DNA of 64,000 nucleotides from an uncultured Phycisphaerales bacterium. Its GTDB lineage: Bacteria; Planctomycetota; Phycisphaerae; Tepidisphaerales; Tepidisphaeraceae. Positions 2,973-63,481 of this stretch are shown here, in pieces; the stretch's first letter is position 1, and every line of letters starts with the position of its first letter. The stretch lies in NCBI GenBank assembly GCA_963836515.1, contig CAWIJX010000006.1:324809-388808 (forward strand), read 5' to 3'. Below the pieces are notes generated by a model. That model was not told the DNA's origin. It did no database searches and saw only the letters and a list, made by a program, of their open reading frames with translations. The position numbers and the translations under genes were made by a program.

Positions 2973-3012
2973 GCGACGTGGCGACGTAGCGACGGGGCGA
3001 CGGGGCGACGAA
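2973..3012. repeat. tandem octamer GCGACGNN x5 in the lepB/tlpA divergent intergenic region
   Basis: gcgacgtg gcgacgta gcgacggg gcgacggg gcgacgaa. The reverse-complement 'cttcgtcg' tandem recurs at 43983-44017 and 37500-37520. Confidence 0.8.
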
Positions 3013-3133
3013 GGGAAGGGCAGGAGGGCACATCTCCGCTGGTGACAACCTCAAGCGCGATGGCTCGGCGCGTTCTCCGGTCGAAAGCCGATTCTCCATT
3101 GATCGAAGGCAACCGTTGCGTTACGCTCGCAAG

Positions 3134-7559: not shown

Positions 7560-7590
7560 GAACCACAGATGAACACTGATGAGCACAGAT
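7560..7590 (+). repeat. 3'-of-gene motif 'element X' copy 1 (GAACCACAGATGAACACtGATGAGCAC), immediately after the stop of the 6138..7551 gene
   Basis: It is an inverted partner of copy 2 at 7628-7656; together they form a long hairpin between convergent genes. Copy 3 is at 37526-37557. Confidence 0.7.
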
Positions 7591-7627
7591 TCGGAGGGCG
7601 AGCATACGCGCCATCTCATCCTATCCT

Positions 7628-7656
7628 AGTCCATCGGTGTCCATCTGTGGTTCCAT
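7628..7656 (-). repeat. element X copy 2 (minus orientation: GAACCACAGATGGACACCGATGGAC) immediately 3' of the RNase H-like gene
   Basis: Seen directly. Confidence 0.7.
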
Positions 7657-9603: not shown

Positions 9604-10070
9604 TTGAGCAGCATGCCGGCCACGCGGCCACAGTATCTTCCTACGCCCCGAGCGCCGGACGGTTCCCCCCGGCCGCAGACGGAGCATTATCGGTCCGCCG
9701 CGCGACGGCTGCGGCACCGCCATCGACACGACCCCGGTGAACTGCAACGATCGTTACAGCGGCTCGCGAGGGCCATGGACCGCGCCGGATCGGATCCGGG
9801 TGAGCTTGTCGGATGCGCCCGCCTGTTCGCTATCCAGGTATCGCGCGAGATCGAAGGGCGCGTGATGCGGTATTCCGCGCGATGCCGGTTGCTCCAGCGC
9901 GCCGATGAACTGGGACTGGGGCGATTTGAGGCCAACCTCATCATCGCATCGGTGCAGCATACGGCCAGTCACGAACGGATCGCCGTTCGCCCCGCGCAGG
10001 AGCCGATGGATTTGGCCAGCGGCGCTGGCGGCAGGCGTGCAGGCCGCCATCGCATGGGCAGTGTGGATCT
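9604..10070 (+). CDS. hypothetical small protein (weak call); the plus-strand terminator at 10117-10143 implies a transcript here
   Basis: In ORF 9604..10260 only the first ~150 aa look protein-like ('GELVGCARLFAIQVSREIEGRVMRYSARC'). The distal part is heptamer repeats and hairpins. Confidence 0.2.
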
Positions 10071-10075
10071 TGGTA

Positions 10076-10111
10076 TTCTGATTTCAGATTTCAGATTTCT
10101 GATTGCAGATT
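10076..10111. repeat. tandem heptamer (C/T)AGATTT / GATTTCA array, locus A
   Basis: 'tctgatttcagatttcagatttctgattgcagattt'. The same heptamer arrays occur at 12514-12545 and, reverse-complemented, at 37436-37486. Confidence 0.8.
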
Positions 10112-10116
10112 TGGAG

Positions 10117-12336: not shown

Positions 12337-12513
12337 CCTGGGGCCGCGGCGGCGCGGGCGAGGCAGAAATGGGTTCGTTCCGCAGCGGAGAGTGCGTGGG
12401 AGCGGGAGTCGGATCTGCAAGCTCTGGCGCGGCGGGAGGTTGTGGGCTTGGGGCGGGGGGATCGGTGGGTTCGTCCGCTCACGTTCACCACCGAGGCGCG
12501 GAGACACGGAGGG

Positions 12514-12545
12514 GATTTCAGATTTCAGGATTTCAGATTTCAGAG
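12514..12545. repeat. tandem heptamer GATTTCA array, locus B
   Basis: 'gatttcagatttcaggatttcagatttcag', inside a ~2-kb stretch (12340-14340) with no convincing ORF. Confidence 0.8.
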
Positions 12546-14350
12546 AAGATTCGGGATTTGGGGTTTCGGGGTCGGCGGTGAGGATGGGGTTGAGGAGGAT
12601 CATTTGATCACTCTGACGGCGGGAGGTTCCAGGGAGGTCTGCCATAAACGGGCTCCAGTTGGGGGTTTACAGATCCGATGGCATCAACGCATTTAGATTC
12701 GTCCTGGAAAAAGCGGGCATGAAGTGGCCCCGGGGCGCGCACAAAGCGACCCCAAAGCGGCCCCGGGCCGGCACTGAGGCGGCACGAAAGGGCGCTGAAG
12801 CGGCCCCTGTTGGCGGGAGAGGCGGCAGCCCGGCGGGGCGAAGGTCATACGTCGTCGGCGAAGTTTTGTGCGCATGATGGCTCCTTGCGGGGTGCCTCGC
12901 TCTATGGTTGAGGCCACAGGGCGATGGATGCGCCCTTCAATATTCCCGTCGTCGCTGCGCAAATCGGTTTGCGTGAGCGCAACGTGGCGCAACACGGTGG
13001 GGTATCTCGCGGGGAAAGCGAGGGATCTGGCGTGTGGGCCAGCCGATCTGCGCAGCGCGCGTGTGAGGGGTCTGAGCCGGGCATGCCGTGGGCGCGGGGT
13101 TTGCTTTGGAAGCTGAGTGCGATGGCCAAAGGGGCGGAGAGAAGGAGGTGAACCGGATTTGCCTGATCCGGTTGCCAGGTTGCCAGGGGGCAGCTTCGCA
13201 GGAGGCGATGGCGGGCAGCATGGGCGGCACGGCGCAGCGCCGGCGATGGATCGGACGCTGTGGCCGCGCGGCCGGCCCAGGGCGGTGGCGGAGGAGGTGA
13301 TTTGGTCGCGGTAGGGACCGCCCTTGCGGGCGGCCCCCCGCACAGATCCGTACGTGCAGCATTACCGCATACGGCTCTTACCTCGGGTGTTTGGCGTGGA
13401 ATCGCACGTTGGGATAAGGATGCAGGATCTTGGGTCGGGGGAGCCATCGGGCCTCCAGCTTCGCGAATCGGTCCCAGGGCATACGATGCTTCTGACTCCG
13501 TCCGCGTAAGGCGAGTAGGCCACTTCACGCACGCGTAGCAGTCCGGGCGACACAACATCCCGGCTCTGAGTCCGGATTGTGGCGGCCTGCTCCGCGTTCC
13601 CTTCAGTTGACCGCCTTCCCTCCGCCTCATCCCGTTGCGCCTGCTGACGTCGCCGGGTGGCGTTGATCCGCTCCCAGAAAGTCCAGAAGGTCTCCTTCTG
13701 GTTCGCGGACTTCTCAGGTACTACGCGGTCATCCGACTTCCCGCACCCGTTCACGTCGCACGTGGGGTCATCGACCTTCTGCGACCGGCCCGTCGCGCCA
13801 TCTTCTGCGGCGGGCAGTTGCGGGATCTCCCGGTTCCCGTGCGAGGAGTTTCCACACGTGCTCAGGGTCTGCGACCGCGCAGGATCGGGCTCAGCCTCGC
13901 CTTGATCGGCTGCCCCGTGTGGCCTTCCGCATATGATTACTGCGTCGGCGCTCCTGGAGATGGGTATTTCGCGGCTCAATGGCTGGCCCGTGTGTGCCCC
14001 TGTCAACGCTTCGCCGCCGGCCTTGCGGCCGTCAACGCATGACTCGCTCTTCGGTGCGGCTGGCTATGCCTTCACCGTGTGACTCTTGCATTCACAACTC
14101 CTCGCCGGTCTTCCCGGCGCACAATCATGGCCCCTTTTCTGAATTCCGACGCCTGGTCCGCTGAACTCCGACCGCGCACGGCGTGAGCCAGCGCCGGAAT
14201 AATTATTTACGTCCCCTTTGTAGCTCCCGAGTGATTCACCAGGTTCGTCAAGAGACCTTACAGGCACCACCGCTGTCGGGAGGTTATAATGTGGCTGTTG
14301 CGGCAAGCGCGCAGACCGACGGGTTGACCATTGCATTAAGGAGTTGTCAC

Positions 14351-19940: not shown

Positions 19941-19984
19941 CTTTTTATCATCGCGGGCGTTGCCCGCAACCAAAGCGTGTGCGT

Positions 19985-20125
19985 CTTTGTCAGTAGTCCG
20001 TTGTCCGTTGTCAGTGGTCGGGTCCGTGGTCCCCTGGTCAGTGGACGCGCGGAGGCTCTCCCAATTGACCAATGGACCATTGACCCGTCCACGGACAACG
20101 GACCACAGACAACTGACGAGCAGAT
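19985..20125. repeat. palindromic repeat element (about 150 bp, ACTGAC/GGTCC/GGACAA-rich), copy 1
   Basis: Shares arms with copies at 33385-33550, 57296-57355 and 58905-59055. All copies are intergenic. Confidence 0.7.
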
Positions 20126-20139
20126 CCGCGGGTCTGGCC

Positions 20140-23100
20140 ATGGCGATCCTCATGGGCATGCTCGTCCCGGCACTGGGGGCGCAGAAGGCTCCCCCACCGG
20201 CGGCGCCGGTTGCGCGATACGCGCCAGATCGTTGCCGACGCCATCCAGGCGATGAAAGCCAACGACTACGCGCGCCGTGGCGCTGTTCGACACTGCTCGC
20301 GCCAAGGCCGATTTCGTCGCCGCTCGCGCCCCCCTGCCGCTGTTCGTCGCCGCGGGCGATTTCCATTTCGCCCAGGGGACGCGCGAGCAGCAGGAGATGG
20401 CGCTGACCATCTACAGCCAGGCCGGCGACGTGCTGGCCGAGATGCTGCAGCCCAATGAGAAGGCGCTGCTGCGCCTCAAGCGCGCCCAGGTGCTCATGCG
20501 CAGGGCCGCGGCGAGACGGCGCGCGAAGAACTGAACCTCATCCGCCGCGCGATCGTCAGCCGGCGGGGCCTGCTTTATGCGGATCTGGGCGATGCCGAGA
20601 TGCTCCTGCTGGCCAGCCAGCCCGACGCGGCCAGGGAGAAGCTCCTGACGCTGGTCGAGGCGGATGACCCGAATATCGCCTCGATGAGCATGTTTGCACT
20701 CGGGCGCACGTACGTTCAGCTCAAGCAGACCGACGCCGCCATCGCCACGTTCCGCAAGCTGTGGACGCGCTACGGCGAGAGCGAGATGATCAAGCGGGCG
20801 ATCTTCCTCGTCGGGCAGATCTACTTCGATCGCGGCGATTTCCTCGAGGCCCGCAAGCTCTACGAGGCCTGTTCCGTCGTCGGCGCGGCCATGCAGAACC
20901 GCGTCCGCCCCGGCGATGAGCTGATCGTCAAGGTCTACGACCTCAACTACTTCAACCGCACGCGATCGACCTCGCTGAACGTCACGCTCTCCGCGCCGTC
21001 GGGCGACCGCGAGACGCTCAAGCTGGAGAAGAACCAGGTCAGCGACCAGCTCTACATCGGCCGGATTCGCACGGCGCTGGCCATGCCCACGGTCAATGAT
21101 GGCATCCTTCAGGTCATGGGAAGAGACGTCATCGAGATCACCTACCCCGGCCAGAGCGGCGGGGCATACAAGGTAGCCGTCGTGGATGATGGCGTCATCA
21201 ACATCGACAGCATCCCCCTGCCGGAGCCACCGCCGCGCTACGAACAGGCGATGGCGCGCGTTCAGCCGCCCAAGCCTGCCGGCGAGCGCCCCATCCTGCC
21301 GATGTCGCGCCAGACCAGCGGCACGCTCAACCCCGGCTCGCCGGTCTATATCCAGCTCATCGACGCCGATCTCGACATCAGCAATGAGCCCGACACGACC
21401 ATGGTGGAAATGGTGGCCAGCGGCGGCGGAAAAGAGAATGTCGTCAAGGTGCAACTCCGCGAGACAGGCCCTCGAACCGGGATCTTCATCGGCTCGGTCA
21501 ACACTGCTTCCTCCGGGCCAACCATGGCGGTGAGTTCCGAAGGCGCCGGCCATCCCGCGATCAACGCGATCGACATGGACCGCGACAGTCTTCCGCCGAC
21601 CACGAGACCCTCGACCCAGCCCGTGAAGGGACCAACCTTCTGGCAGGCCAAACTGGGCGACAAGACGCCTTACCTGGAGATCGATCTGCACCAGCCGGCG
21701 GCGCTGGGCAAGATTATCTGGGGGGCTGGCAGCGATCCGCTGGCCGGCCGGAACATGCCCACGGATCTCACCATCACCCTGAAAGGCGATGGCCCGGAGA
21801 AAGTCCTGACGCTGACCAATCAATCGCAGCCGGTAGGCAACGTCATCGATCTCAAGGGAGCGTACGCGCGAACGATTCGCTTCGACATCACCAAATGGCG
21901 CGGCGATGCGCCGGCCATCGGCCAGGTCATCCTCACCGATCTCGACGGCAATCAACTGATCCCCAGTGCGATTCCCGCCGGCTCGTTGGCCGGCGCCGGC
22001 GTGCTGGAGTTCAACGTCGGGCAGAGTGTCTTTGCGCGATATCTCGATGAGCTGAACGAGACGCCGGGCACGCCGGTGATACGCGAATCGCGGCGGCTTG
22101 GCGCACGATATCACAATGGCACGCTGGCGCTGGTCAAGCCATCGGGCGACGACAACCGCGCCAAGGCATTTGTCCCCGCATGGAGGCTCGACCTCAACGC
22201 CGCGCCCACATCGTGCTGAACGATCCCGACCTGGACATCACGCCGAATCCCGACAAGGCGAGCGTCGAGGTGTTCACCGAAGCTGGCGCGAAGCAGACCG
22301 TCGAGCTGACTGAGACCGGCAACGCCACCGGCATTTTCGCCGGCCCGCTCACGCTCTCGACCAATCCGCAGGCGCTGAATAATCCCCGCATCCTCTACAT
22401 CCGGCCGGGCGACGTGCTTTGGATGAAGTATCTCGACCAGCGCAACATGCAGCCGGGATACAAGACGTTCCGCCATGCCTATGTACTGGAAAACCGGCCG
22501 ACCGCGGCGCAACTTATCGTGCCGCCGCTGCTGACCACCGCCTGGCCGTTTGAGATCAAGGGCACGGGCGATGAGGATGAATCGCCCATCGCCGCGCGAT
22601 CGCTCGGACAGGGCCGCATCAGCATCGGGGTTCATGATCCCGATGCGATGCCCAATGGCGATTGCGCCGTCAGCATGAAGATCAACGCGCTGATCGGCGG
22701 CGCGGCCAGGGACCTGACCCTCAACTGCACCGGCCCGTGTACGGCCACCGAGCAGGTGGACCTGGTCCTCGGCGAAGCCGAGGTGGCGCGGCGCGTCGGC
22801 GATTCGGCCAAGACGCGCGGCCAGTCCGAACTGGCCGTCCTGGGCGACGATATCGTTCGCCTCTCTTACGTCGATGCGCACGTGCCTTCGGGCGATCTCC
22901 AGGTGCGCCGATCATGCCCGACCCGCTACAGCCGGGATCGGGCAAAGCGCCGCCGAAAAAGGCGGCCAAGGATGATGAGCCGGTTGGCACGCCGGTCATC
23001 TCGCTGATGGACCCCAACCGGCGGGCGGTCGCGGCGCAGGAGTCGCGCCTGGCCGAGCTGCGCGCCGAGGTCAACTATCGGTCCTGGGCCTATGCCCAGG

Positions 23101-24845
23101 AGCGTACCGTGCTCGAGACGCGGCGCGAGCTGCTCAAGAAGCGGCTGGCCGCGGCGCCCGCCAAGGCGCCGACCACCAACCCGGCCGACGCGGAGACTGA
23201 CGCGACCGCTTCGGCGATCTCGTCGCTCAACAGCCAGATCACGCTGCTGAATGGCCGGATCGACCGGCTCAAGACACTGGGCGCGGTGGCGAGCGACAAG
23301 GCGCCCACGACCGCTCCCGCGGCCAAGCCGAATCCCGAGCAGACCGCGCTGATTGAGGCCGGCAGCGCCTTCGATATCGCGATTGAAGATCCCGATCTGA
23401 AGGAGCCAACTGTCGAGGTCCGGGTCCGCAGCATGGGCGGGCGGCTCATCGATTCCGTCACGATTTCGGCCAAGCGCGATGACGGCGGCGTCTACCGCGC
23501 CCACGTGCAGACCGACCGCGGCGAGGCCGGCCAGAAGGGCCTGCTGTCGGTCGTGCCCGGCGGCGAGATCGTGGCCGACTATCAGAACAAGAACCGCGCG
23601 CCGCAGGAGAACGTCGATCGCGTGAGTTACCTGGCTCTCGCCTCGGACGCGACGCTCGCGGCCACCAATGCCAACTTCACCGATCAGGTGAGCAAAGTGC
23701 GGCTGGGCGAGCCGGTGTACGTGCAGGTCATCAATTTCGCGGCCGACCGCTCGCCGGGAATCAATGTGGTCGCGGCCGACGTGACCTCCAGCAGCGGCGA
23801 TCGCCTTACTCTGATCCTCTCCGAAACCGAGCCGCACAGCGGCATCTTCCGCGGCAAGTTCTACACCGATGCCGGCGCGCCCAATCCCAACGATGACGTG
23901 CTCCAGGCCGCATATGGCGGGAGCGTGCAGATCGTCTATCGCGACTATCTCCGCCAGGACCGCTCGCAGTCGCTGGAGAGAAAGCTGCGGCTCGAAATCG
24001 CCGGCGGCACCGATGGAATCGTCGAGGCCTTCTCGCGCCAGTTCAAGGATGCGCAGGAAGAGATGAAGCTCTGGTATCGCACCGGCCAGTCGGCCTACCA
24101 GATCGGCCGGCGGCTCTACCTGGCCGGCGGCTACGAGCGTGCCGAGGAGTACTTCATCGAAGCCAACGACTACTTCTCGCACCTCGTTTCGCGATTCCCC
24201 GAAGAGGCCCTGGCCGCCAGCGCCAACTATTATCTGGGTAACATCCAGTCGCTCAAGGGCAATCACCGCGAGGCGCTGCTGCGGTTCCAGGAGATCGTGA
24301 CGCGCTGGCCCAAGTCGGATTTCGTGGCCAAGGCGCGATTCAAGGTCGGCCAGGCGTATGAGGCCATGGGCCAGTTCGAGCAGGCCGCCGACGCGTACGT
24401 GCTGCTGACGTATCACCATCCCGATGATGCGCACGTGCCCATGGCGATGATTCGGATGATGAACTACTACGCCCGCGGCGAGCAGTACGCCGATGCGGTG
24501 GCGATCGCGCAGAAGTTCGTGGAGAAGTTCCCGAAACAGGAGCAGGCCGGCGCGGTGGCGCTGAAGGCCGGGCAGTGGCTGGCGGTGGCCGAGAAACTCG
24601 ACGACGCCCTGGCCTGGTTCGCACAGGCCGAGAAGACCTTCGCAACCAATGACAAGGACATGCCGGCGCTGCTGTACTGGCATGCGGCGACACTGATCCA
24701 GATGCAAACGGCGCCGAAGGCGAGGCTCACGGTTCGGCCGGACAAGATTCGCGAGCTGCTCAACCGCGTAATTTACGACTATGGCAAGAGCGAGTACGTG
24801 AACCTCGCCCGCGCGGCGATGGAGCAGGTGCCGTTGAACCAATGA
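20140..24845 (+). CDS. very large secreted TPR / 'ETGxxTGxF'-repeat protein (about 1560 aa), at least five apparent frameshifts
   Basis: The coding signal hops between ORFs 19933.., 20210.., 20277.., 20600.., 22180.. and 22662..24845. Signal peptide 'MAILMGMLVPALGAQ'. Motifs 'VQLRETGPRTGIFIGSV', 'VELTETGNATGIFAGPL', 'LILSETEPHSGIFRGKF'. C-terminal TPRs. Confidence 0.55.
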
Positions 24846-24980
24846 CCAATTTCTAATGACGAATGTCTAAAGAAGGCCGAATGACGGAATGACGAATGAC
24901 GAATGACGGTGGCGTTTCGGACTTCGTCATTTGATCATTCGGAATTGATTAGACATTCGTCATTTGACATTCAGCATTCG
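24846..24980. repeat. imperfect 120-bp palindrome built from GAATGAC/GTCATTC heptamers (terminator or REP-like element)
   Basis: 'ctaatgacgaatgtctaaag..gaatgacggaatgacgaatgacgaatgacgg..tcgtcatttgatcattcggaattgattagacattcgtcatttg'. Confidence 0.7.
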
Positions 24981-28054: not shown

Positions 28055-29440
28055 CCTATATCATCGCGGCTGAAGTATCATGCCGAGTGATGCCGATCTC
28101 CATGAAGTCACGGATGACAAGGAGATGCGATGGTCACGGAAGACTTGAACAGCCACGCGTTGGTTCTACCGCAAGCACAGCGTTGCATTCTTGAGAGCCT
28201 GGTCCGGCGGAAGACCTGTCCGCAGGCGGTGGCCACGCGGGCTCGCGTGATCTTGGCGGCCGGCGAGGGTCTGGGCTCGGTGGGGATCGCCCTTCGGGTG
28301 GGGTGCTCCCGCGAACTGGTGCGACACTGGCGAGCCCGCTACAGGGCGGCCCAGCAGGCTTGGGGAGCGGACGTTGCCCAGTGGGATGAGGCGGCCCTGG
28401 CCCGGAAGATCGAGCAGGCGCTCTCGGACGAGTATCGCTGCGGGTGTCCGGGCAAGTTCACGCCTGAGCAGTACTGCCAGATCATGGCGTTGGCCTGCGA
28501 GAAGCCGTCGGACAGCGGCCGGCCGGTGACGAACTGGACGAACCGGGAGTTGGCCGAGGAGGCGGCCAAACGGGGGATCGTGCCGTCGATCTCGCCCCGG
28601 CAGGTGGGGCGTTTTTTAAAAGGAGGCGGACCTGCGGCCGCACAAGATGCGGTATTGGCTGAACAGTCCCGACCGGCAGCATCCCGAGGAGTTTGCGGCG
28701 CGGTCGGGGGCGGTGTGCGCGGCCTACGGCTCGGCCATCGCGATGCACGAGCTGGGCACGCACCTCGTGAGCGTGGATGAGAAGACCGGCATGCAGGCGA
28801 TAGAACGCGCAGCGCCCACGCTGCCGATGAGGCCGGGACAGGTGGAGCGTCAGGAGGCCAATTACGTTCGGCACGGGACGCTGATGCTGACGGCCAACCT
28901 GGAAGTGGCCACGGGGAAGGTAATCTGTCCAACGGTGGCGTTGACGCGGCACGAGGAAGACTTTGCCGCGCATGTGGCCCAGACGGTGGCCAGCGACCCC
29001 CAGGCAGCGTGGATCATCGTGCTGGACCAGCTCAACACGCACCAATCCGAGACGTTGGTGAGGCTGGTGGACGAGTTGTGTGGACTGGGGGTGGAACTGG
29101 GCGTCAAGGGCGAGTCGGGCCTGCTCAAGGACCTGAAGAGCCGGCGAGCGTTCCTGGAAGACCCCAGCCATCGCATCCGGTTCCTGTACACGCCACGGCA
29201 CGCTTCGTGGCTCAACCAGATCGAGATCTGGTTCAGCATCCTGGCACGCCGGCTGCTGCGCCGGGGCAGCTTCCAATCCATCGACGAGTTGCGGCGGCGT
29301 GTCCTGGCGTTCATCGAGTACTTCAACCAGACGATGGCCAAGCCGTTCCGGTGGACCTATCAGGTCCGGCCCTTGAGCGCGTGACGGACGTGGCGGAAAG
29401 GGTCGATCTCAACAGACTGGCCACGATTCCCGGCGGAAAG
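28055..29440 (+). mobile_element. IS630-family insertion sequence; ends approximate, TIRs not identified
   Basis: Carries the IS630/Tc1-mariner transposase gene. Sits between exbD and an orphan PIN gene. Confidence 0.5.
28130..29384 (+). CDS. IS630-family DDE transposase, two overlapping frames joined at a T6A4 run (28612-28621)
   Basis: N-terminal HTH frame ends '...ISPRQVGRFLKGGG' (ORF 28130..). DDE frame (ORF 28647..) carries 'LVSVDEKTGMQA', 'IIVLDQLNTHQSE', 'LYTPRHASWLNQIEIWFSIL'. Net +1 frame change at 'gttttttaaaaggagg'. Confidence 0.8.
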
Positions 29441-30143: not shown

Positions 30144-30239
30144 TACCGTACCTCAAATCGCCTCTTTCAAGTGCTTGAGATACCAACCGGCCGGGCTATA
30201 GTGTTCTTGATCGTTGGGCTAACAGGACAGGGGTGCGAT

Positions 30240-31013
30240 ATGACACTGCAATGGTTCTTCGCCTGGTGGAACCTCATCTTCATCGTCCCACTGCTGCTCG
30301 CCCTGCTTTACATGGCGGTCTATCTGGTCAGCGGCGTCTCCTTCGGCGAGGCCGATGCCGCCGCCGATGTCGATGCTGATGCCGACGTTGACGCAGACGC
30401 CGATGTGGATGCCGACGCGGACGTAGATGCTGACGCCGATGCAGACGCAGACGCAGACGCCGACAGCGAAGCCGAAACCGCCGCCGCTCAAACCGGCGGC
30501 CCCTCCGCCATGCTCGCCGCCATGGGATGGCTCGGCGCCGGCCGCGTGCCCCTCAGCATCCTCTTTCTCATCCTCTTCAGCAGTTGGGGAATGATCGGCT
30601 TCCTCTGCAACGTCGTCACCTTCCCGCAATTCGCCCACTCGCCGATGGCCATGATCTGGTCGCTTCCGCTGGCCGCCGTCGGCAGCGCCCTGTTCACCAA
30701 GCTCGTTTCGCGCCTGGCCGCGCGATGGCTGCCCACCTACGAAACCTACGCCCAGCGCCGCCATCATCTGCTGGGCTTGGCCGGCCAGGCCATCTTCCCC
30801 ATCGACGCCACCTTCGGCATGGTTGCCGTCCGCGACAGCCGCGGCAACCTGTTCCAGGTCCCCTGCCGTCCCTACGGCAAGATAGCATCCATAGAAAAAG
30901 ACGCTGACGTGCGCCTCGTGGCGTACAACGGCAAGAGCCAGTTGTTCTACGTCGTTCCGGTCAAACCCGCCGAGGGACAAGCCCCGGCGGACAGCACCAA
31001 GAGGGCCCCATGA
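30240..31013 (+). CDS. NfeD-family membrane protein (flotillin partner) with an acidic (DADADV)n repeat
   Basis: C-terminal NfeD OB-fold 'GMVAVRDSRGNLFQVPCRPYGKIASIEKDADVRLVAYNGKSQLFYVVP'. TM helices. The stop overlaps the floT ATG (ATGA). Confidence 0.75.
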   Translation: MTLQWFFAWWNLIFIVPLLLALLYMAVYLVSGVSFGEADAAADVDADADVDADADVDADADVDADADADADADADSEAETAAAQTGGPSAMLAAMGWLGAGRVPLSILFLILFSSWGMIGFLCNVVTFPQFAHSPMAMIWSLPLAAVGSALFTKLVSRLAARWLPTYETYAQRRHHLLGLAGQAIFPIDATFGMVAVRDSRGNLFQVPCRPYGKIASIEKDADVRLVAYNGKSQLFYVVPVKPAEGQAPADSTKRAP

Positions 31014-32963: not shown

Positions 32964-33349
32964 GCTGGCGCGACGAACTGCAACTGCTGGGCATCCCCGT
33001 CCCCGACGACATCTCGCCAGACCGGCTGGTGGCCGCGCTCTGCGCCAAGCCGCTTGAGAGCACGCTCATCACGGTGGCTCTCTCGGCACTGCTCTTCTAC
33101 CGCGTGGAAAAGGGCCACAACTCCAAGATCAACAGCTACTGGGACGCCACGCTCTACTGCTCAACCTGCCTGTCGGTCGGCTACGGCGAAATCTTCGCCC
33201 GCACGCCCATCGGCAAGTTCCTGGGCACGCTCCTCATGACCATCGGCCCCGCCCTGGCCAACAAGACCCTCGACGGCCCCCCGCGCGGTGACGGTGTGCA
33301 ATCCGAAATCCTCGCCACCCTCAAGGAGATCGCCGCCAAGCTGGCTTGA
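32960..33349 (+). CDS. small ion-channel-like protein with a K+-channel pore signature (SVGYGE)
   Basis: 'LYCSTCLSVGYGEIFARTPIGKFLGTLLM'. ATGA overlap with the floT stop. Confidence 0.55.
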   Translation: MSWRDELQLLGIPVPDDISPDRLVAALCAKPLESTLITVALSALLFYRVEKGHNSKINSYWDATLYCSTCLSVGYGEIFARTPIGKFLGTLLMTIGPALANKTLDGPPRGDGVQSEILATLKEIAAKLA

Positions 33350-33384
33350 CGCGCAAAGTGGCAGCGGCGTCCCGCCGCTGTTCC

Positions 33385-33550
33385 GGTCCGTTGCCCGTTG
33401 TCCTTGGTCCCTAGACGGGTCAATGGTCCCCTTTGTCAGTTGCAGCGGCCCGACGGGCCTCAAATCCGAGTGGCGGATCGAGTGGCGAATCCACTGACCA
33501 ACGAACAACGGACCCGACCACTGACCACGAACAACTGACCACTGACAAGG
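33385..33550. repeat. palindromic repeat element, copy 2
   Basis: Arms 'gacgggtcaatggtcccctttgtcagttgc' and 'actgaccaacgaacaacggacccgaccactgacc'. The loop is similar to the copy at 58905. Confidence 0.7.
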
Positions 33551-33596
33551 ACCCCAAAACTAAAGACTTCCGATAACTCGCGTCGATACTGATTGT

Positions 33597-33947
33597 GTGA
33601 TGACCGAAATCCCGCAGCGCCAATCTCCCGCGCCCGCGGGCACGTCCCTCGGCGCGCCCATCCTGCCCTTCTGCGAACGCCGCAAGGACCACCGCCGCCC
33701 CGTGCAGACGCCCGCCAGGCTCACGGTCCTCGACGGCCCCCTGGCCGGCAGCACGCACGATGTCCAGACCCGCGACCTCTCCCTCAGCGGCATCTCCTTC
33801 CTCCTGCGCCAGTCCCTCGCCGTCGGCCAGAACTGCCGCGTCGACATGGCCAACGGCCACGGCGCCCTCAGCCGCATCGGCGAAGTCGTCCGCTCCCGCC
33901 CCCTGAGCAACGGCAAATACGAAATGGGCGTCCAGTTCCGCAAGTGA
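33597..33947 (+). CDS. PilZ-domain (c-di-GMP-binding) protein
   Basis: 'ERRKDHRRPVQTPARL' (RxxxR) and 'TRDLSLSGISFL' (DxSxxG). Confidence 0.7.
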   Translation: MMTEIPQRQSPAPAGTSLGAPILPFCERRKDHRRPVQTPARLTVLDGPLAGSTHDVQTRDLSLSGISFLLRQSLAVGQNCRVDMANGHGALSRIGEVVRSRPLSNGKYEMGVQFRK

Positions 33948-36370: not shown

Positions 36371-37300
36371 ATGCCCTCCCCAACAGCCAGTCCGCGCGCC
36401 CACAGCCCCGAAACCGCCATCCGCAGTGTCGTCAACGCCACCATCCCCAGCCTGCCGCCCGCCGGCAGCGCCTCCGCGCCGCCAGGTGCCCTGCCCCCCT
36501 TCCCCGCCGTTTCTCCATCTGTTCAAAATATAGAAGACCAGCTCAGCGTCTTCTGCGACATCTGCAGTTTCTCCCACCCCAGGTCTCAGCCCTGCGACCC
36601 CGACGATCTGGCCCGACACCGCGTTTTCCTGTCCGCAATCGAAAATCAAAAATCGACAATCGAAAATCCCAAAGGCGGCCCCCGCACCCCCGAAGGCAAA
36701 GCCCGCTCCCGCCTCAACGCCCTCAAGCACGGCCTCACCGCCACCCTCCCCGTCATCCTCCCCGGCGAAGACCCGGCCGAGCGCCAGGCCCTGCTCGACT
36801 CCCTCACCCGCGATTTCAAACCCGCCAACGAGGTCGAGCGCATCCTCGTCCAGCGCCTCACCCACCTCGCCTGGCAACTCCGCCGCCTCCCGGCCGCCGA
36901 GGCCGAAATCCTCCGCCAACTGAACGAACAGCATCGCCTCGAAATCGAAGACCAGAACACCATCAACCGCCGCCAGCACATGCATTCCAGTGATGAAACC
37001 CAGCAACAGAACGAACCCACGCCCCTCCCCATCACCGACGCCACCCCCGCCCAGCTCCTGGCCGACCAGTTCCTGAGCGCCGACGACAAATCGAACCCCC
37101 TCGCCCGCCTCCAGCGCTACGAATCCACGATCCAGCGCCTCCTTCGACAAGGCCCTCAGCAGCCTCACCAAGCTCCAATCCGCCCGCGCACAAAACGAAC
37201 TGGCCTCACGGAGCCAACCCACGCCGCCGACCGAACTCAACTTCCAAACCGAACTCAAATTGCAGAACGAACCCGCCGGCATCTGTCATTTGAAATCTGA
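36371..37300 (+). CDS. hypothetical protein (conserved-looking core 'KARSRLNALKHGLTATLP...RILVQRLTHLAWQLRRL')
   Basis: 309-aa ORF. It contains the 35-bp AATCGAAAATCAAAAATCGACAATCGAAAATC repeat (36635-36670), which recurs at 37358-37392. Confidence 0.35.
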   Translation: MPSPTASPRAHSPETAIRSVVNATIPSLPPAGSASAPPGALPPFPAVSPSVQNIEDQLSVFCDICSFSHPRSQPCDPDDLARHRVFLSAIENQKSTIENPKGGPRTPEGKARSRLNALKHGLTATLPVILPGEDPAERQALLDSLTRDFKPANEVERILVQRLTHLAWQLRRLPAAEAEILRQLNEQHRLEIEDQNTINRRQHMHSSDETQQQNEPTPLPITDATPAQLLADQFLSADDKSNPLARLQRYESTIQRLLRQGPQQPHQAPIRPRTKRTGLTEPTHAADRTQLPNRTQIAERTRRHLSFEI

Positions 37301-37435
37301 AACCCGCGTCCCGCAATTCGCAGTCCGCAATTCGCAGTCCGCAATCCCCTCCTCTCCAATCGACAATCAAAATTCAAAAATCGATAATCCCGCCACCCCC
37401 ATCGCCCTCGCTGGACCGACACAACCACGTCAGGC

Positions 37436-37486
37436 TTCTGAAACCTGAATCTGAAATCTGAAATCTGAAATCTGAAATCTGAAATC
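37436..37486. repeat. tandem heptamer TCTGAAA (reverse complement of GATTTCA) array, locus C; part of a composite repeat patch 37295-37560
   Basis: 'ttctgaaacctgaatctgaaatctgaaatctgaaatctgaaatcc'. The patch also holds a 14-mer 'tccgcaattcgcag' x2.5 (37305-37347), 'cttcgtcgctccgtcgcttcc' and element X. Confidence 0.8.
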
Positions 37487-37525
37487 CGCCCTCCGCCCCC
37501 TTCGTCGCTCCGTCGCTTCCTCCAA

Positions 37526-37557
37526 CTCCGTGTCCATCCGTGTTCATCTGTGGTTCA
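37526..37557 (-). repeat. element X copy 3 (GAACCACAGATGAACACGGATGGACACGG), overlapping the stop of the O-antigen-ligase-like gene
   Basis: Seen directly. Confidence 0.7.
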
Positions 37558-43961: not shown

Positions 43962-43977
43962 CTTGCGATCCCATCCC

Positions 43978-44184
43978 TCACCCTTCGTCGCTTCGTCGCT
44001 TCGTCGCTTCGTCGCTCATTTGACCCGCCGACGCCCCCTTGCGCTTCAGCATCGCCTGCCGCAGCACCCACTCGATCTGTCCGTTGACGCTGCGCAGCTC
44101 GTCGGCCGCCCAGGCTTCCAGCTCGGCCCAGAGTGCGGGGTCGATCCGCAGCAGAAACGCTTTCTTGTCGGCCTTCTCTGGCAT
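43978..44184 (-). CDS. ribbon-helix-helix (Arc/CopG-like) DNA-binding protein
   Basis: '[40 protein letters not shown]'. Internal ATG at 44184. Confidence 0.5.
43983..44017. repeat. tandem octamer CTTCGTCG x4 (reverse complement of the GCGACGAA family)
   Basis: Seen directly. Lies between convergent XRE and RHH genes. Confidence 0.8.
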
Positions 44185-56973: not shown

Positions 56974-57295
56974 GACGTTGCTTCTTCCTGAAAGACGGCG
57001 GCCGATCGTAATCCGCGAGCGCCGCAATGCAAGATCGATCGCGACCCTTGGGCAGATCTCGCAGGGCAACCTCATTTGAGTTGTGGTCGTTCCCGGCGGC
57101 TAAAGCCGCCCCTACGAACTGCCGCCTCGCGAGGCGCCGCATCACCCCCCAGCGATCTCCGCTGAGTCATCGATCAGTGATTTCCCGCGCAACGCCGGCA
57201 TGCGACGGAAAGTAATTTTCTACAACCGGAACAATCCCGCCGGGCCACATCCGCCGAAGAACAAGAACTGGTGAACACGATAGGCTTTCGCCGCA

Positions 57296-57355
57296 TCCAT
57301 TGACTAACGGACAACGGACCCAACCACTGACCACGGACAACTGACTACTGACAAG
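57296..57355. repeat. palindromic repeat element, partial copy (right arm only)
   Basis: 'ttgactaacggacaacggacccaaccactgaccacggacaactgactactgacaagccc'. Confidence 0.6.
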
Positions 57356-58834: not shown

Positions 58835-58904
58835 GCATCCTCAGCTAAATGCCCGGACTGAAAAGTTGTAAGCCGCCCCAATATTGGTTTGAGCGCGCGG
58901 TTGT

Positions 58905-59055
58905 CAACCCCATAGGTCCGTCGTCCGTGGTCCGTAGACGGGTCAATGGTCCCTTGGTCAGTTGCGAGAGCCCAACAATCCCAAACCTGAGTGGCACATC
59001 CACTGACCAAGGACTAACGGACCCAACTACTGACCACTGACCACTGACAATCGCC
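58905..59055. repeat. palindromic repeat element, copy 4
   Basis: Arms 'gacgggtcaatggtcccttggtcagttgc' and 'ccactgaccaaggactaacggacccaactactgacc'. Confidence 0.7.
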
Positions 59056-59071
59056 CCTGACGCTTGGCGCT

Positions 59072-62281: not shown

Positions 62282-63481
62282 ATGCGGCCGTTGGGGCGGC
62301 TTCAGCCGCCGCGCCTGGCCGCCCTTCGCATGGACCCATCGCCAACCAACCTCATGCGACGCGCCCTCGACCTGGCCCGCCTTGGCCGCGGCCGGGTCGA
62401 GCCCAATCCCATGGTCGGCTGCGTTATCGAGAAAGCCGGCCGGATCATCGGCGAGGGCTATCACCGCCGTTTCGGCGGGCCCCATGCCGAAATCGAAGCT
62501 CTTGCCTCATGCACCGAAAGCCCGGCCGGCGCCACCGCCTGCGTGACCCTCGAGCCCTGCTGTCACACCAACAAGAAGACGCCGCCCTGCGTGCCCGCCA
62601 TCGTGGCCGCAAAGCTGGCCCGGGTTGTCGTCGCATGCCGCGACCCCAATCCCGCCGTTGCCGGCCAGGGCATCGAGCAGCTTCGCCAAGCCGGCATTGC
62701 GGTGGAGTCGGGCCTTCTCGAACCGCAGGCCCGGCAGCTCAACGCGCCGTACTTCGCCCGCGTGCTGCACAATCGCCCGTACGTGACCCTCAAATGGGCG
62801 CAGAGCGCCGATGGCAAACTGGCCGGGCCAGGCAATTGCCGCATCCAGATCAGCAACGAGCATTCGATGAGGCTCGTGCATGAGCTGCGATCGCGTTGCG
62901 ACGCGATCCTCGTCGGCATCGGCACCGTCCTGGCCGACGATCCACTGCTGACGGTGCGAGACGTGCAACCCTCGCGTGAACTGCTGCGGGTTGTCCTCGA
63001 TTCTGCGCTCCGGCTGGCGCTCGATTCCCAACTCGTGCGCACAGCGCGCGAGCACCCGCTCCTCGTCTACTACGCTGACCCTGACACGGCATCCGCTCGC
63101 GCCTTGCAGCAAGCCGGCGTCGAGGTGGTTGGTCTCTCGAAGGGCGAGGATGGCCGCCTCGATATCCAGACCGCGCTGCACGACCTGGCCGCGCGCGATG
63201 TCACGCACCTGCTCGTCGAAGGCGGCGCCACGATCCTGGCCAGCTTTCTGTCACAGAATCTAGCGGATCGAGTCTGGGTGTTCACGTCGCCCATGCGGAT
63301 TGGCGATGGGGTCGTCGCGCCGTTCTGTCGGTGGGGCAGACATTCTTGTCTGCCATCATCTATGGCAGACAAGAATGTCTGCCCCACCGACAGAGATCAG
63401 CTTGTGGAAATGCTCAACCCCGCCAGCCCCGTGTTCTTCCACCTCGATCCATCCGCGGACTTCCCAGATCCCGTTCCGTGA
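62282..63481 (+). CDS. ribD: bifunctional riboflavin biosynthesis deaminase/reductase RibD
   Basis: 'HAEIEAL...CVTLEPCCH' deaminase zinc motif; reductase domain 'TLKWAQSADGKLAG...ILVGIGTVLADDPLLTVR'. A 33-bp perfect inverted repeat sits in its 3' end. Confidence 0.85.
   Translation: MRPLGRLQPPRLAALRMDPSPTNLMRRALDLARLGRGRVEPNPMVGCVIEKAGRIIGEGYHRRFGGPHAEIEALASCTESPAGATACVTLEPCCHTNKKTPPCVPAIVAAKLARVVVACRDPNPAVAGQGIEQLRQAGIAVESGLLEPQARQLNAPYFARVLHNRPYVTLKWAQSADGKLAGPGNCRIQISNEHSMRLVHELRSRCDAILVGIGTVLADDPLLTVRDVQPSRELLRVVLDSALRLALDSQLVRTAREHPLLVYYADPDTASARALQQAGVEVVGLSKGEDGRLDIQTALHDLAARDVTHLLVEGGATILASFLSQNLADRVWVFTSPMRIGDGVVAPFCRWGRHSCLPSSMADKNVCPTDRDQLVEMLNPASPVFFHLDPSADFPDPVP
63324..63393. 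repeat. perfect 33-bp inverted repeat with 5-nt loop (CTGTCGGTGGGGCAGACATTCTTGTCTGCCAT-catct-ATGGCAGACAAGAATGTCTGCCCCACCGACAG) embedded in the ribD 3' coding region
   Basis: Seen directly. 71 nt, no mismatches. Confidence 0.9.

Follow-up and report, generated by a model that had tools for sequence, protein, structure and literature searches.

The imperfect palindrome that follows the stop codon of an ion-channel gene at positions 33385-33552 raises the question of what kind of sequence it is, how it came to be repeated at other places in the same genome, and whether the long hairpin that it could form is the reason for its conservation. The window, as we call the whole stretch of DNA that was analysed, comprises 64 kb of the host genome and holds the family at a density of 4 copies per 64 kb. 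The first-pass annotation had placed four copies here, and this count is borne out beyond chance, as three full elements and one solo arm:

19986-20119, minus strand: copy A, full element, inverted with respect to B and C; on the plus strand it reads as the reverse complement of the right arm (about 19987-20049), loop (about 20050-20065) and reverse complement of the left arm (about 20066-20117).
33385-33552, plus strand: copy B, full element, the most decayed; left arm 33385-33445, loop 33446-33484, right arm 33485-33552.
57293-57355, plus strand: copy D, solo right arm with no left arm to its left, which aligns with the other copies.
58908-59056, plus strand: copy C, full element; left arm 58915-58968, loop 58969-58994, right arm 58995-59056.

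Unsupervised repeat detection in the window recovered these copies as a direct family of 64 nt with four members (20057-20120, 33486-33549, 57292-57355 and 58995-59058) and a direct family of 36 nt with three members (at 19998, 33395 and 58918), together with the inverted arms of copy A (19989-20040 and 20066-20117; 52 nt, 83% complementary) and of copy C (58916-58962 and 59002-59048; 47 nt, 74% complementary). Copy A is taken as inverted with respect to B and C because it aligns better as the reverse complement and because its positions 20054-20110 are 88% complementary to positions 58916-58972 of copy C, loop sequence included. An arm profile run with nhmmer detected the window arms with E-values from 5e-18 to 9e-6; copy D was the top match of the window (E = 4.8e-18), followed through the full elements by copy A at 20048-19987 (E = 3.5e-17) and 20060-20119 (E = 1.7e-10), copy B at 33486-33549 (E = 6e-16) and 33446-33384 (E = 9e-6), and copy C with E-values of 2.8e-14 and 2.2e-9. 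All four copies contain the 18-mer ACGGACCCRACYACTGAC without mismatch, the expectation in the shuffle control being 0.17 even with three mismatches tolerated, and A, B and C, the full copies, contain GACGGGTCAATGGTCC without mismatch. The loop words quoted in the earlier reading are likewise present, caaatccgagtggcg in B and caaacctgagtggcac in C. The family is genuine and consists of non-coding, dispersed, imperfect palindromes of about 130-170 bases built of 7-base words.

The distribution of the family was explored by scanning the 18-mer against 185,579 species-representative genomes (596 Gb) and a metagenome collection. The genome scan returned 33 matches, where by our arithmetic roughly 70 are expected by chance in 596 Gb; inspection together with the arm profile identified true members at 3 of these 33 and, among the 48 metagenome loci, at about 7, and the remaining matches were discarded as mostly chance or a conserved Streptomyces gene start. 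Looking in related Planctomycetota, as had been advised from the sequence of the window, thus proved productive, with nine elements of the same arm architecture on other Planctomycetota genome or metagenome contigs. The full palindromes among them are L012 (on a Planctomycetota MAG), L044 (with the inner left arm deleted), L045, L050, L074 and L072 (248-441), and the solo arms are L013/L072/L075 (one single locus), L025 and L063. Since the outside copies were ascertained by the exact right-arm 18-mer, conservation of the right arm is inflated; the sample is also small (eight full elements). Viral contigs and plasmids gave no match to the family, and about 176 kb from ten relatives, which carry hss (homospermidine synthase) or TPR1 orthologues at 53-82% identity, contained no palindromic copy, where about 11 would be expected at the density of the window by our arithmetic. 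The nearest named homologues of the window genes are found in Tepidisphaeraceae for hss (78% identity) and in Tepidisphaerales for a TPR protein (66%).

A full copy is formed by two inverted arms of about 60 nt each flanking a variable, non-periodic loop of roughly 15-70 nt. In each arm, degenerate words of 7-8 nt follow one another in a fixed order and without gaps; they are MACKGAC units in the register 8-8-7-5-7-7-7, with the consensus CAACTGAC CAACGGAC CACGGAC CCAAC CACTGAC AACGGAC AACTGAC. In an alignment of right arms with reverse-complemented left arms from three full elements of the window and five outside it, 16 of 16 arms fitted one gap-free profile, the eight elements coming from at least six contigs. 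The variation is centred on the K (T/G) and M (A/C) positions, and five of the seven positions of each word are conserved in both arms and across genomes; as the variable K and M positions differ by transversion, G-U wobble cannot point to a functional strand. TRF detected arrays of period 7 or 14 in every arm (19996-20044, 33493-33546, 57307-57354 and 59029-59048), with 69-76% matches except for a perfect run of 2.9 units in copy C, and the inner 8-8-7-5 core of the arm is non-periodic. The words listed in the first-pass annotation as free-standing motifs are in fact units of this degenerate heptamer repeat. Each arm is A+C-rich on one strand, so that a single arm cannot fold on itself. The outer ends of the elements fade through variable numbers of words and have no sharp terminus, and the loop of copy B carries a 12-nt duplication, CGAGTGGCG(G/A)AT, seen by TRF as a 12-nt unit repeated 2.1 times at 33467-33491. 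The window also contains several further families of words in this style; neither these nor the heptanucleotide-array nature of the arms had been mentioned before.

The two arms can be told apart in the window, the left arms all having GACGGGTCAATGGTCC and the right arms having ACGGACCCRACYACTGAC instead, and the identity between left arms is 0.80-0.88, versus 0.66-0.81 for right against left arms. Furthermore, non-periodic loop strings are held in common by A and C (GAGAGCC) and by B and C (CAAAYCYGAGTGGC), and the loop-proximal GCNCATCC is common to B, C and the solo arm D. These features show that the window copies derive from a single asymmetric ancestor, which was copied as a unit to intergenic sites unrelated to one another, since independent slippage would not reproduce both the asymmetry of the arms and the unique loop strings at unrelated loci.

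The folding of the copies as RNA was very uneven. Copy A reaches -87.5 kcal/mol (z = -9.9) and copy C gives z = -5.5 on the plus strand and -3.5 on the minus strand, and the MFE structure of copy B (z = -1.8) differs from the arm-arm hairpin; isolated arms fold no better than shuffles (z = +0.45 and -0.83 for D, -0.12 for the right arm of B). The z-values therefore form a series of decay from A through C and B to D, the last at about 0. These folds show that the arms can pair as a long imperfect hairpin on either strand. The inverted arms that had been attributed to the copies in general are indeed shared by A, B and C; copy D is a solo arm, and copy B barely folds arm to arm.

Covariation, proposed in the first-pass annotation as a check, is absent both when own arms are compared with swapped arms and in shuffle tests. 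Complementarity between the arms of the same element is 0.755, versus 0.758 between arms of different elements (arm-swap test, permutation p = 0.6). In a mirror structure of 43 pairs, 77.6% of the cells are paired versus 78.2% with the partners shuffled, 387 of 500 shuffles being equal to or above the observed value, and the covariation score is 0.063 versus 0.074 in shuffles. The paired cells fall to 22-44% in slid controls, a drop which indicates only that both arms follow one conserved sequence. The absence of compensatory evolution fits the copying of a conserved sequence over selection on the fold, and the hairpin is best explained as a consequence of the inverted-arm construction, with no sign of selection on the pairing.

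All window copies lie directly after a gene stop, as the earlier reading had it, at a distance of 48, 35, 11 and 6 nt for A, B, C and D, respectively, and they end 22-73 nt ahead of the next start. The neighbouring genes were assigned by Pfam and by comparison of orthologues. Copy A is located between TPR1 (stop 19940, 48 nt before the first word) and TPR2 (homology-supported start 20140), in a conserved TPR-TPR-TPR-MotA/ExbB-ExbD-ExbD cluster. Copy B is flanked by the ion-channel gene, which stops at 33349, and by a PilZ gene, which starts at 33597. A BacA/UppP gene (stop 59072) and the homospermidine synthase gene hss, both on the minus strand, enclose copy C, and copy D lies past the stop (57362) of this same minus-strand synthase. 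A sigma70-like match, TTGACA-16-AATATT, at 58907-58880 on the minus strand follows copy C in the direction of transcription and is upstream of hss; copy C thus sits where a transcript end is expected, between the BacA/UppP stop and the promoter-like match. One long gene of the window carries several frameshifts, which may reflect small indel errors of the assembly.

Most scorable copies, inside and outside the window, begin less than 50 nt from a stop codon. In five of the nine outside elements (L012, L044, L045, L050 and L072a) one end lies within about 35 nt of a called stop. The stop called at L072b overlaps with the end of the element, L025 has its nearest one at a distance of about 200 nt, and on the stop side of L063 and L074 there is no called gene; the ORF calls from which the stop distances at these outside loci are measured were made with a rough GC3 heuristic. 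Co-directional genes predominate among the pairs in which both neighbours are called, and none of the scorable copies lies between divergent genes. The elements have no uniform orientation towards the upstream gene, the right arm being proximal in about 7 cases and the left arm in about 3. A 'stop trap' with TGA in three frames was rejected as a role for the elements, since in mRNA sense it is mostly the GTCAGT side that forms the proximal arm, and Rho utilisation through the C-rich arm was rejected likewise, since at D and L072b, both of them solo arms, the strand in mRNA sense is the G+T-rich one.

The TPR operon is syntenic in three relatives (L090, L091 and L092), and the ACTGAC palindrome is absent from the TPR1|TPR2 spacer in 3 of 3, a comparison in which the orthologues are only about 65% identical and the spacers of the relatives are themselves rearranged. 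The conserved ...NQKRGGKDE stop is followed by element A in the window and by no repeat in L091; in the same spacer L090 carries (AAAATGC)5 and (TTCAAAT)6, and L092 carries GAAACTC/AAAATTC words followed by (ATCTCAGATTTCAA)4. At the TPR2|TPR3 junction the window has a different palindrome, of GAATGAC words, and L090 has CTTCGTGC octamers. Instead of a palindromic copy, and away from this spacer, the relative L034 has a 457-bp array of 65 units of (ACTGACC)/(AATGACC), with about 33 ACTGACC units and then about 22 AATGACC. Arrays of period 7 or 14 amount to 29 of the 91 tandem arrays of the window and the related loci. It follows from these arrays, and from the differing heptamer arrays at orthologous spacers, that the TPR spacers are hot spots for the gain and loss of various heptamer-word sequences. 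Within this broader phenomenon the ACTGAC palindrome is one family, either gained in the lineage of the window or lost or replaced in the others. The heptamer arrays of the relatives and the pure (ACTGACC)n of L034 also mean that some of the similarity could be due to in-situ slippage of a shared stock of words. Around homospermidine synthase the neighbourhood is unconserved in the seven relatives compared, and no empty sites were gained from it.

Our best reading, to which we give about an even chance, is that the family is a dispersed, non-autonomous palindrome of the REPIN/MITE-like kind, made of heptanucleotide satellite words and copied as a whole unit. The element would have spread as a non-autonomous REPIN/MITE-type sequence by means of a trans-acting enzyme or of recombination, and would have survived only where its insertion was tolerated, that is, in 3' UTRs and intercistronic spacers. 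After insertion, the copies may have decayed and been remodelled by heptamer slippage. When transcribed, the intact copies would form a stem of about 50 bp, which could, as in REP/BIME elements, hold up 3' exonucleases, make transcription pause or end, or stall ribosomes at termination. Such hairpin effects at the mRNA level, supposed by analogy with those systems, we regard as by-products, and not as the cause of the sequence conservation.

Explanations of a quite different nature fared badly. The TD-rich ORF translations found across the copies, such as TDNGPQTTD, might suggest a repetitive peptide-coding segment, or else chance GC-rich low complexity might account for the similarity, and we assign practically no probability to either. 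Six ORFs overlapping the copies gave no Pfam match, copy C contains an in-frame stop, and the period of 7-8 nt together with the inverted copy leaves no conserved reading frame, in keeping with the earlier statement that the copies overlap no supportable CDS and create spurious ORFs. The low-complexity similarity, which the first-pass annotation had considered as a possible refutation, is excluded by the shuffle controls and by profile E-values reaching 1e-18. A family of small-RNA genes with their own promoters, to which only the hairpin potential of A and C and the absent coding signal point, is very improbable. At the gathering threshold Rfam gave nothing at the copies, its only match being a group II intron elsewhere in the window, and at E <= 10 the copies yielded only noise of 10-19 bits, which agrees with the earlier remark that this is not a recognised family. 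Scans for promoter and terminator consensus sequences found nothing at the elements themselves and no U-tract at any copy. The lack of covariation, the abutment to stops in both orientations with respect to the flanking genes, and the solo arm that does not fold argue in the same direction. The small-RNA-gene, coding and chance explanations are effectively excluded. Thus, from the initial suggestion of a MITE/REP-like or small-RNA family, the dispersed palindromic intergenic repeat stands, and the small-RNA gene does not.

An origin in situ deserves more weight and is nonetheless rather unlikely in our estimate. It supposes that ACTGACC-type microsatellites slip in permissive spacers and that fold-back template switching makes quasi-palindromes out of them, so that the copies share a stock of words with no transposition. 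The TRF arrays of the arms, the 65 units of L034, the proportion of period 7 or 14 among the tandem arrays and the different heptamer arrays of L090 and L092 at the orthologous TPR1|TPR2 spacer are all consistent with this origin, and heptamers are the commonest class of long simple sequence repeats in bacteria according to Mrazek 2007, in the summary given in PMC4679880. Against it, the non-periodic 8-8-7-5 core, the left/right asymmetry and the non-repetitive loops are common to unrelated loci, and every one of the arms aligns without a gap. Selection for a cis-acting element is a further account, which we hold with little confidence: the words would bind a sequence-specific RNA or DNA factor, as was proposed for the TAACTGA repeats (PMC4679880), or the hairpin would serve as a terminator or 3'-end stabiliser punctuating operons. 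The conservation of five of seven word positions on both arms and across genomes, with K and M varying by transversion, would be explained equally well in this way, and it would account for the position of the copies near stops and operon junctions (TPR1|TPR2 and BacA|promoter|hss), the GAATGAC-word palindrome at the next junction (TPR2|TPR3), and the forward words that reach to or near the next start codon in the co-directional pairs of L050 and L044. REP sequences near stop codons reportedly affect mRNA stability and translation, in studies ascribed to Newbury in 1987 and to Liang, Rudd and Deutscher in 2015. Selection on a cis element is, however, difficult to reconcile with the absence of covariation, with hairpins that range from z = -9.9 to none and lie in both orientations, with the absence of the palindrome at the orthologous site in relatives, where L091 has no repeat at all, and with the lack of a U-tract terminator or promoter consensus at the elements.

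A bolder extension, which we consider a long shot, is that Tepidisphaerales-like planctomycetes possess a lineage-wide word system of fast turnover in 3'-end spacers and operon junctions, with a dedicated factor that generates or recognises the words. Such a system would, at the same low probability, have a shared vocabulary including ACTGACC/ACGGACA, GAATGAC, AATCTGA, CTTCGTCG and others, of which the ACTGAC palindrome would be the most elaborate member. The factor might be a post-transcriptional regulator that binds the repeats, or else an enzyme specialised in copying. If the word system were real, it would offer a handle on the unexplained STRR and TAACTGA repeats of Cyanobacteria, Beggiatoaceae and Bacteroidetes; and if the words are recognised by a specific factor, the family would provide a second, independent lineage in which to test the function of heptamer repeats.

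In the literature on planctomycete heptanucleotide repeats or on these word strings we found no description of the family, which would be a repeat not catalogued before in Planctomycetota, a phylum whose intergenic repeats have hardly been described. The novelty is modest and not fundamental, given that the behaviour of the family is that of REP/MITE-type dispersed repeats known from other bacteria. In practical terms, the elements create spurious ORFs and will probably disturb both the assembly of planctomycete MAGs and the calling of genes in them; they also serve as marks of operon junctions and 3' ends and could be used for strain typing.

Among known systems, the closest parallel is with the REP/REPIN/BIME sequences, which are repetitive extragenic palindromes associated with RAYT (PMC3116915, PMC3733652, PMC2817692) and which carry at one end an unpaired tag, GTAG or CGTC, that is conserved (PMC3733652). 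Like them, the present family is non-coding and dense and is confined to spacers, either at the 3' end of a gene or between genes transcribed together. The resemblance extends to the REPIN doublet, in which inverted halves give a long hairpin, solo halves persist as remnants and a lineage-specific sequence is conserved: copies A, B and C are formed by two inverted arms, and D, L013/L072b and L025 are singlets. In contrast to the REP unit of 20-40 bp, a single arm is A+C-rich here (G+T-rich on the other strand) and has no stem-loop of its own, so that only arm-arm pairing yields a hairpin. The arms also differ from REP in being arrays of period-7 words with no conserved GTAG/CGTC tag, as GACGGGTC is preceded by GTAG in copy C, by CTAG in copy B, by GTGG in copy A, and by GTTG or GGCG in other genomes. 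Y1_Tnp was absent among the ten window proteins scanned. The window contains a separate, more REP-like doublet, GGGGCAGACATTCTTGTCTGCC, present twice at 63324-63394.

ERIC/IRU and Correia elements are palindromic MITE-type repeats of 120-170 bp, found in transcribed intergenic regions with a patchy copy number and with secondary effects as RNA hairpins. The size, the imperfect palindrome over the whole length, the location, the patchy copies and the presumed secondary nature of hairpin effects are similar in our family, which differs from them in its internal heptamer periodicity and in having no sharp TIRs, no recognisable TSD and, in the window, no related IS. The ends fade, with no parent IS in the window, and next to A, B, C, D, L044 and L050, whose boundaries are fuzzy, no direct repeat that could represent a target-site duplication was found. 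The only IS of the window, an IS630-like element (28130-29384), was considered as a parent and discarded, its ends being unrelated. Strict MITE or REP membership is therefore unsupported, this being the part of the first classification that did not stand, and the building blocks belong to the heptanucleotide repeat class. With intrinsic terminators the family shares a stem-loop downstream of stops, as well as the position of copy C between a gene end and a promoter-like site; it is distinguished from them by a stem that is about 50 bp long and is interrupted by mismatches at regular intervals, by the lack of a U-tract, by a very variable strength and by the existence of solo arms.

The cyanobacterial STRR heptamers, reportedly described by Mazel in 1990, are related in style, and the AATGACC of the L034 array corresponds to the STRR2 unit TTGGTCA. 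The TAACTGA direct repeats are intergenic repeats with unexplained function in Beggiatoaceae, Cyanobacteria and Bacteroidetes, whose units lie in forward orientation and end 1 nt before start codons (PMC4679880). In common with TAACTGA, SSR and STRR sequences, the present family has a 7-nt unit, an intergenic location and a patchy spread over several lineages; its words CAACTGA, CCACTGA, CAACGGA and TAACGGA are one or two substitutions away from TAACTGA, and the TD-rich translations of the copies parallel the LITDN translation tabulated for those repeats (PMC4679880). Unlike heptamer SSRs, it shows a fixed order of degenerate words, a non-periodic core and two inverted arms around a unique loop. 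Unlike the TAACTGA repeats, it has units such as CAACTGA, CCACTGA and CAACGGA set in inverted arms, its copies follow stop codons, and whole units of 150 bp have been copied between loci. The family thereby joins two classes that are usually kept apart, the dispersed palindromes of the REP/REPIN/MITE kind and the heptanucleotide satellites represented by STRR and TAACTGA.

The window contains a second element in the same style as the ACTGAC-type palindromic element, built of GAATGAC words and located between TPR2 and TPR3, successive genes of the conserved TPR-TPR-TPR-MotA/ExbB-ExbD-ExbD cluster:

24841-24978, GAATGAC-word palindrome

Its arms are 63 nt long, 76% complementary and 12 nt apart, and the palindrome occupies the entire spacer from the TPR2 stop (24845) to the TPR3 start (24989). 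Alignment of the orthologous 1578-aa TPR protein of L090, a relative with the syntenic operon, to TPR2 (20140-24845) moves through frames 2, 1 and 3 in turn, with additional frame breaks near 20200-20600; either TPR2 is a pseudogene or there are indel errors in the assembly.

The spacers orthologous to the site of element A (the full copy between TPR1 and TPR2) and to that of the GAATGAC palindrome hold unrelated heptamer or octamer arrays in L090 and in L092, a further relative with this operon, and are absent from a third, L091. An array was also found in L034, a related genome whose homospermidine synthase gene (hss) is 80% identical:

L090 12953-13052, (AAAATGC)5 and (TTCAAAT)6, orthologous to the element A spacer
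L092 12913-13021, GAAACTC/AAAATTC and (ATCTCAGATTTCAA)4, orthologous to the element A spacer
L090 17941-17966, (CTTCGTGC)3, orthologous to the GAATGAC palindrome spacer
L034 6823-7279, tandem array of 65 heptamers, 457 bp

The L034 heptamers run from about 33 ACTGACC units through mixed units to about 22 AATGACC units; the array has divergent genes on either side, one of them starting about 60 nt beyond it, and is immediately preceded by an octamer array (CGCCCTTC). Within the window itself, short words of this kind are assembled in one spacer and recur elsewhere:

37281-37556, mosaic spacer with several 7-8-nt word arrays
10060-10112, 12513-12544, 2973-3015, 7560-7650, 36627-36668 and 43976-44016, other sites of its words

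The mosaic comprises (TCTGAAA)x7, CCGCAAT/TCGCAGT, AATCGAA, CTTCGTCG and CCGTGTYCAT, every type of which is found again in the window, frequently inverted, and similar words (CCCTTCGTC, CGTCGCTT) occur in the relatives L034 and L088. The recurring words look like a common vocabulary of intergenic words.

Analysis of the sequences adjoining the three full copies of the palindromic element, A, B and C, gave the following features:

19950-19985, short GC-rich stem-loop GCGGGC-GTT-GCCCGC between a stop codon and element A
33352-33384, short GC-rich stem-loop CAGCGGCG-TCC-CGCCGCTG between a stop codon and element B
58880-58907, minus strand, sigma70-like promoter match (TTGACA, 16 nt, AATATT; 10/12)

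A similar GC-rich hairpin adjoins the solo arm on contig L013, and the stem-loops beside A and B could be true transcript-end structures or an insertion target. Following the direction of transcription, the predicted promoter comes directly after element C and ahead of hss.

An insertion sequence, group II intron domains and a coding repeat are also present:

28130-29384, IS630-like insertion sequence
13305-14086, minus strand, group II intron domains (Rfam: D1-D4, 153.6 bits, and D5-D6)
30347-30486, coding hexamer/12/18-nt repeat within ORF 30171-31013

The IS630-like transposase is probably made by frameshifting, because its HTH_32/HTH_23 ORF (28130-28780) and DDE_3 ORF (28647-29384) overlap in different frames; the element adjoins the MotA/ExbB-ExbD genes, and its flanks showed no inverted repeats like the palindromic element. 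The intron is apparently ORF-less, since its two Rfam matches are just ~780 nt apart and the one candidate ORF scanned there had no Pfam support. The coding repeat encodes an acidic low-complexity (DA/DV)n stretch.

A last inverted structure sits inside the long ORF 62282-63481, towards its 3' end:

63324-63394, perfect inverted doublet (33 nt, 5-nt spacer) of the small hairpin GGGGCAGACATTCTTGTCTGCC

Either it is an insertion within the gene or the true gene end is earlier than that of this ORF; in its form, the doublet resembles REP/REPIN elements.
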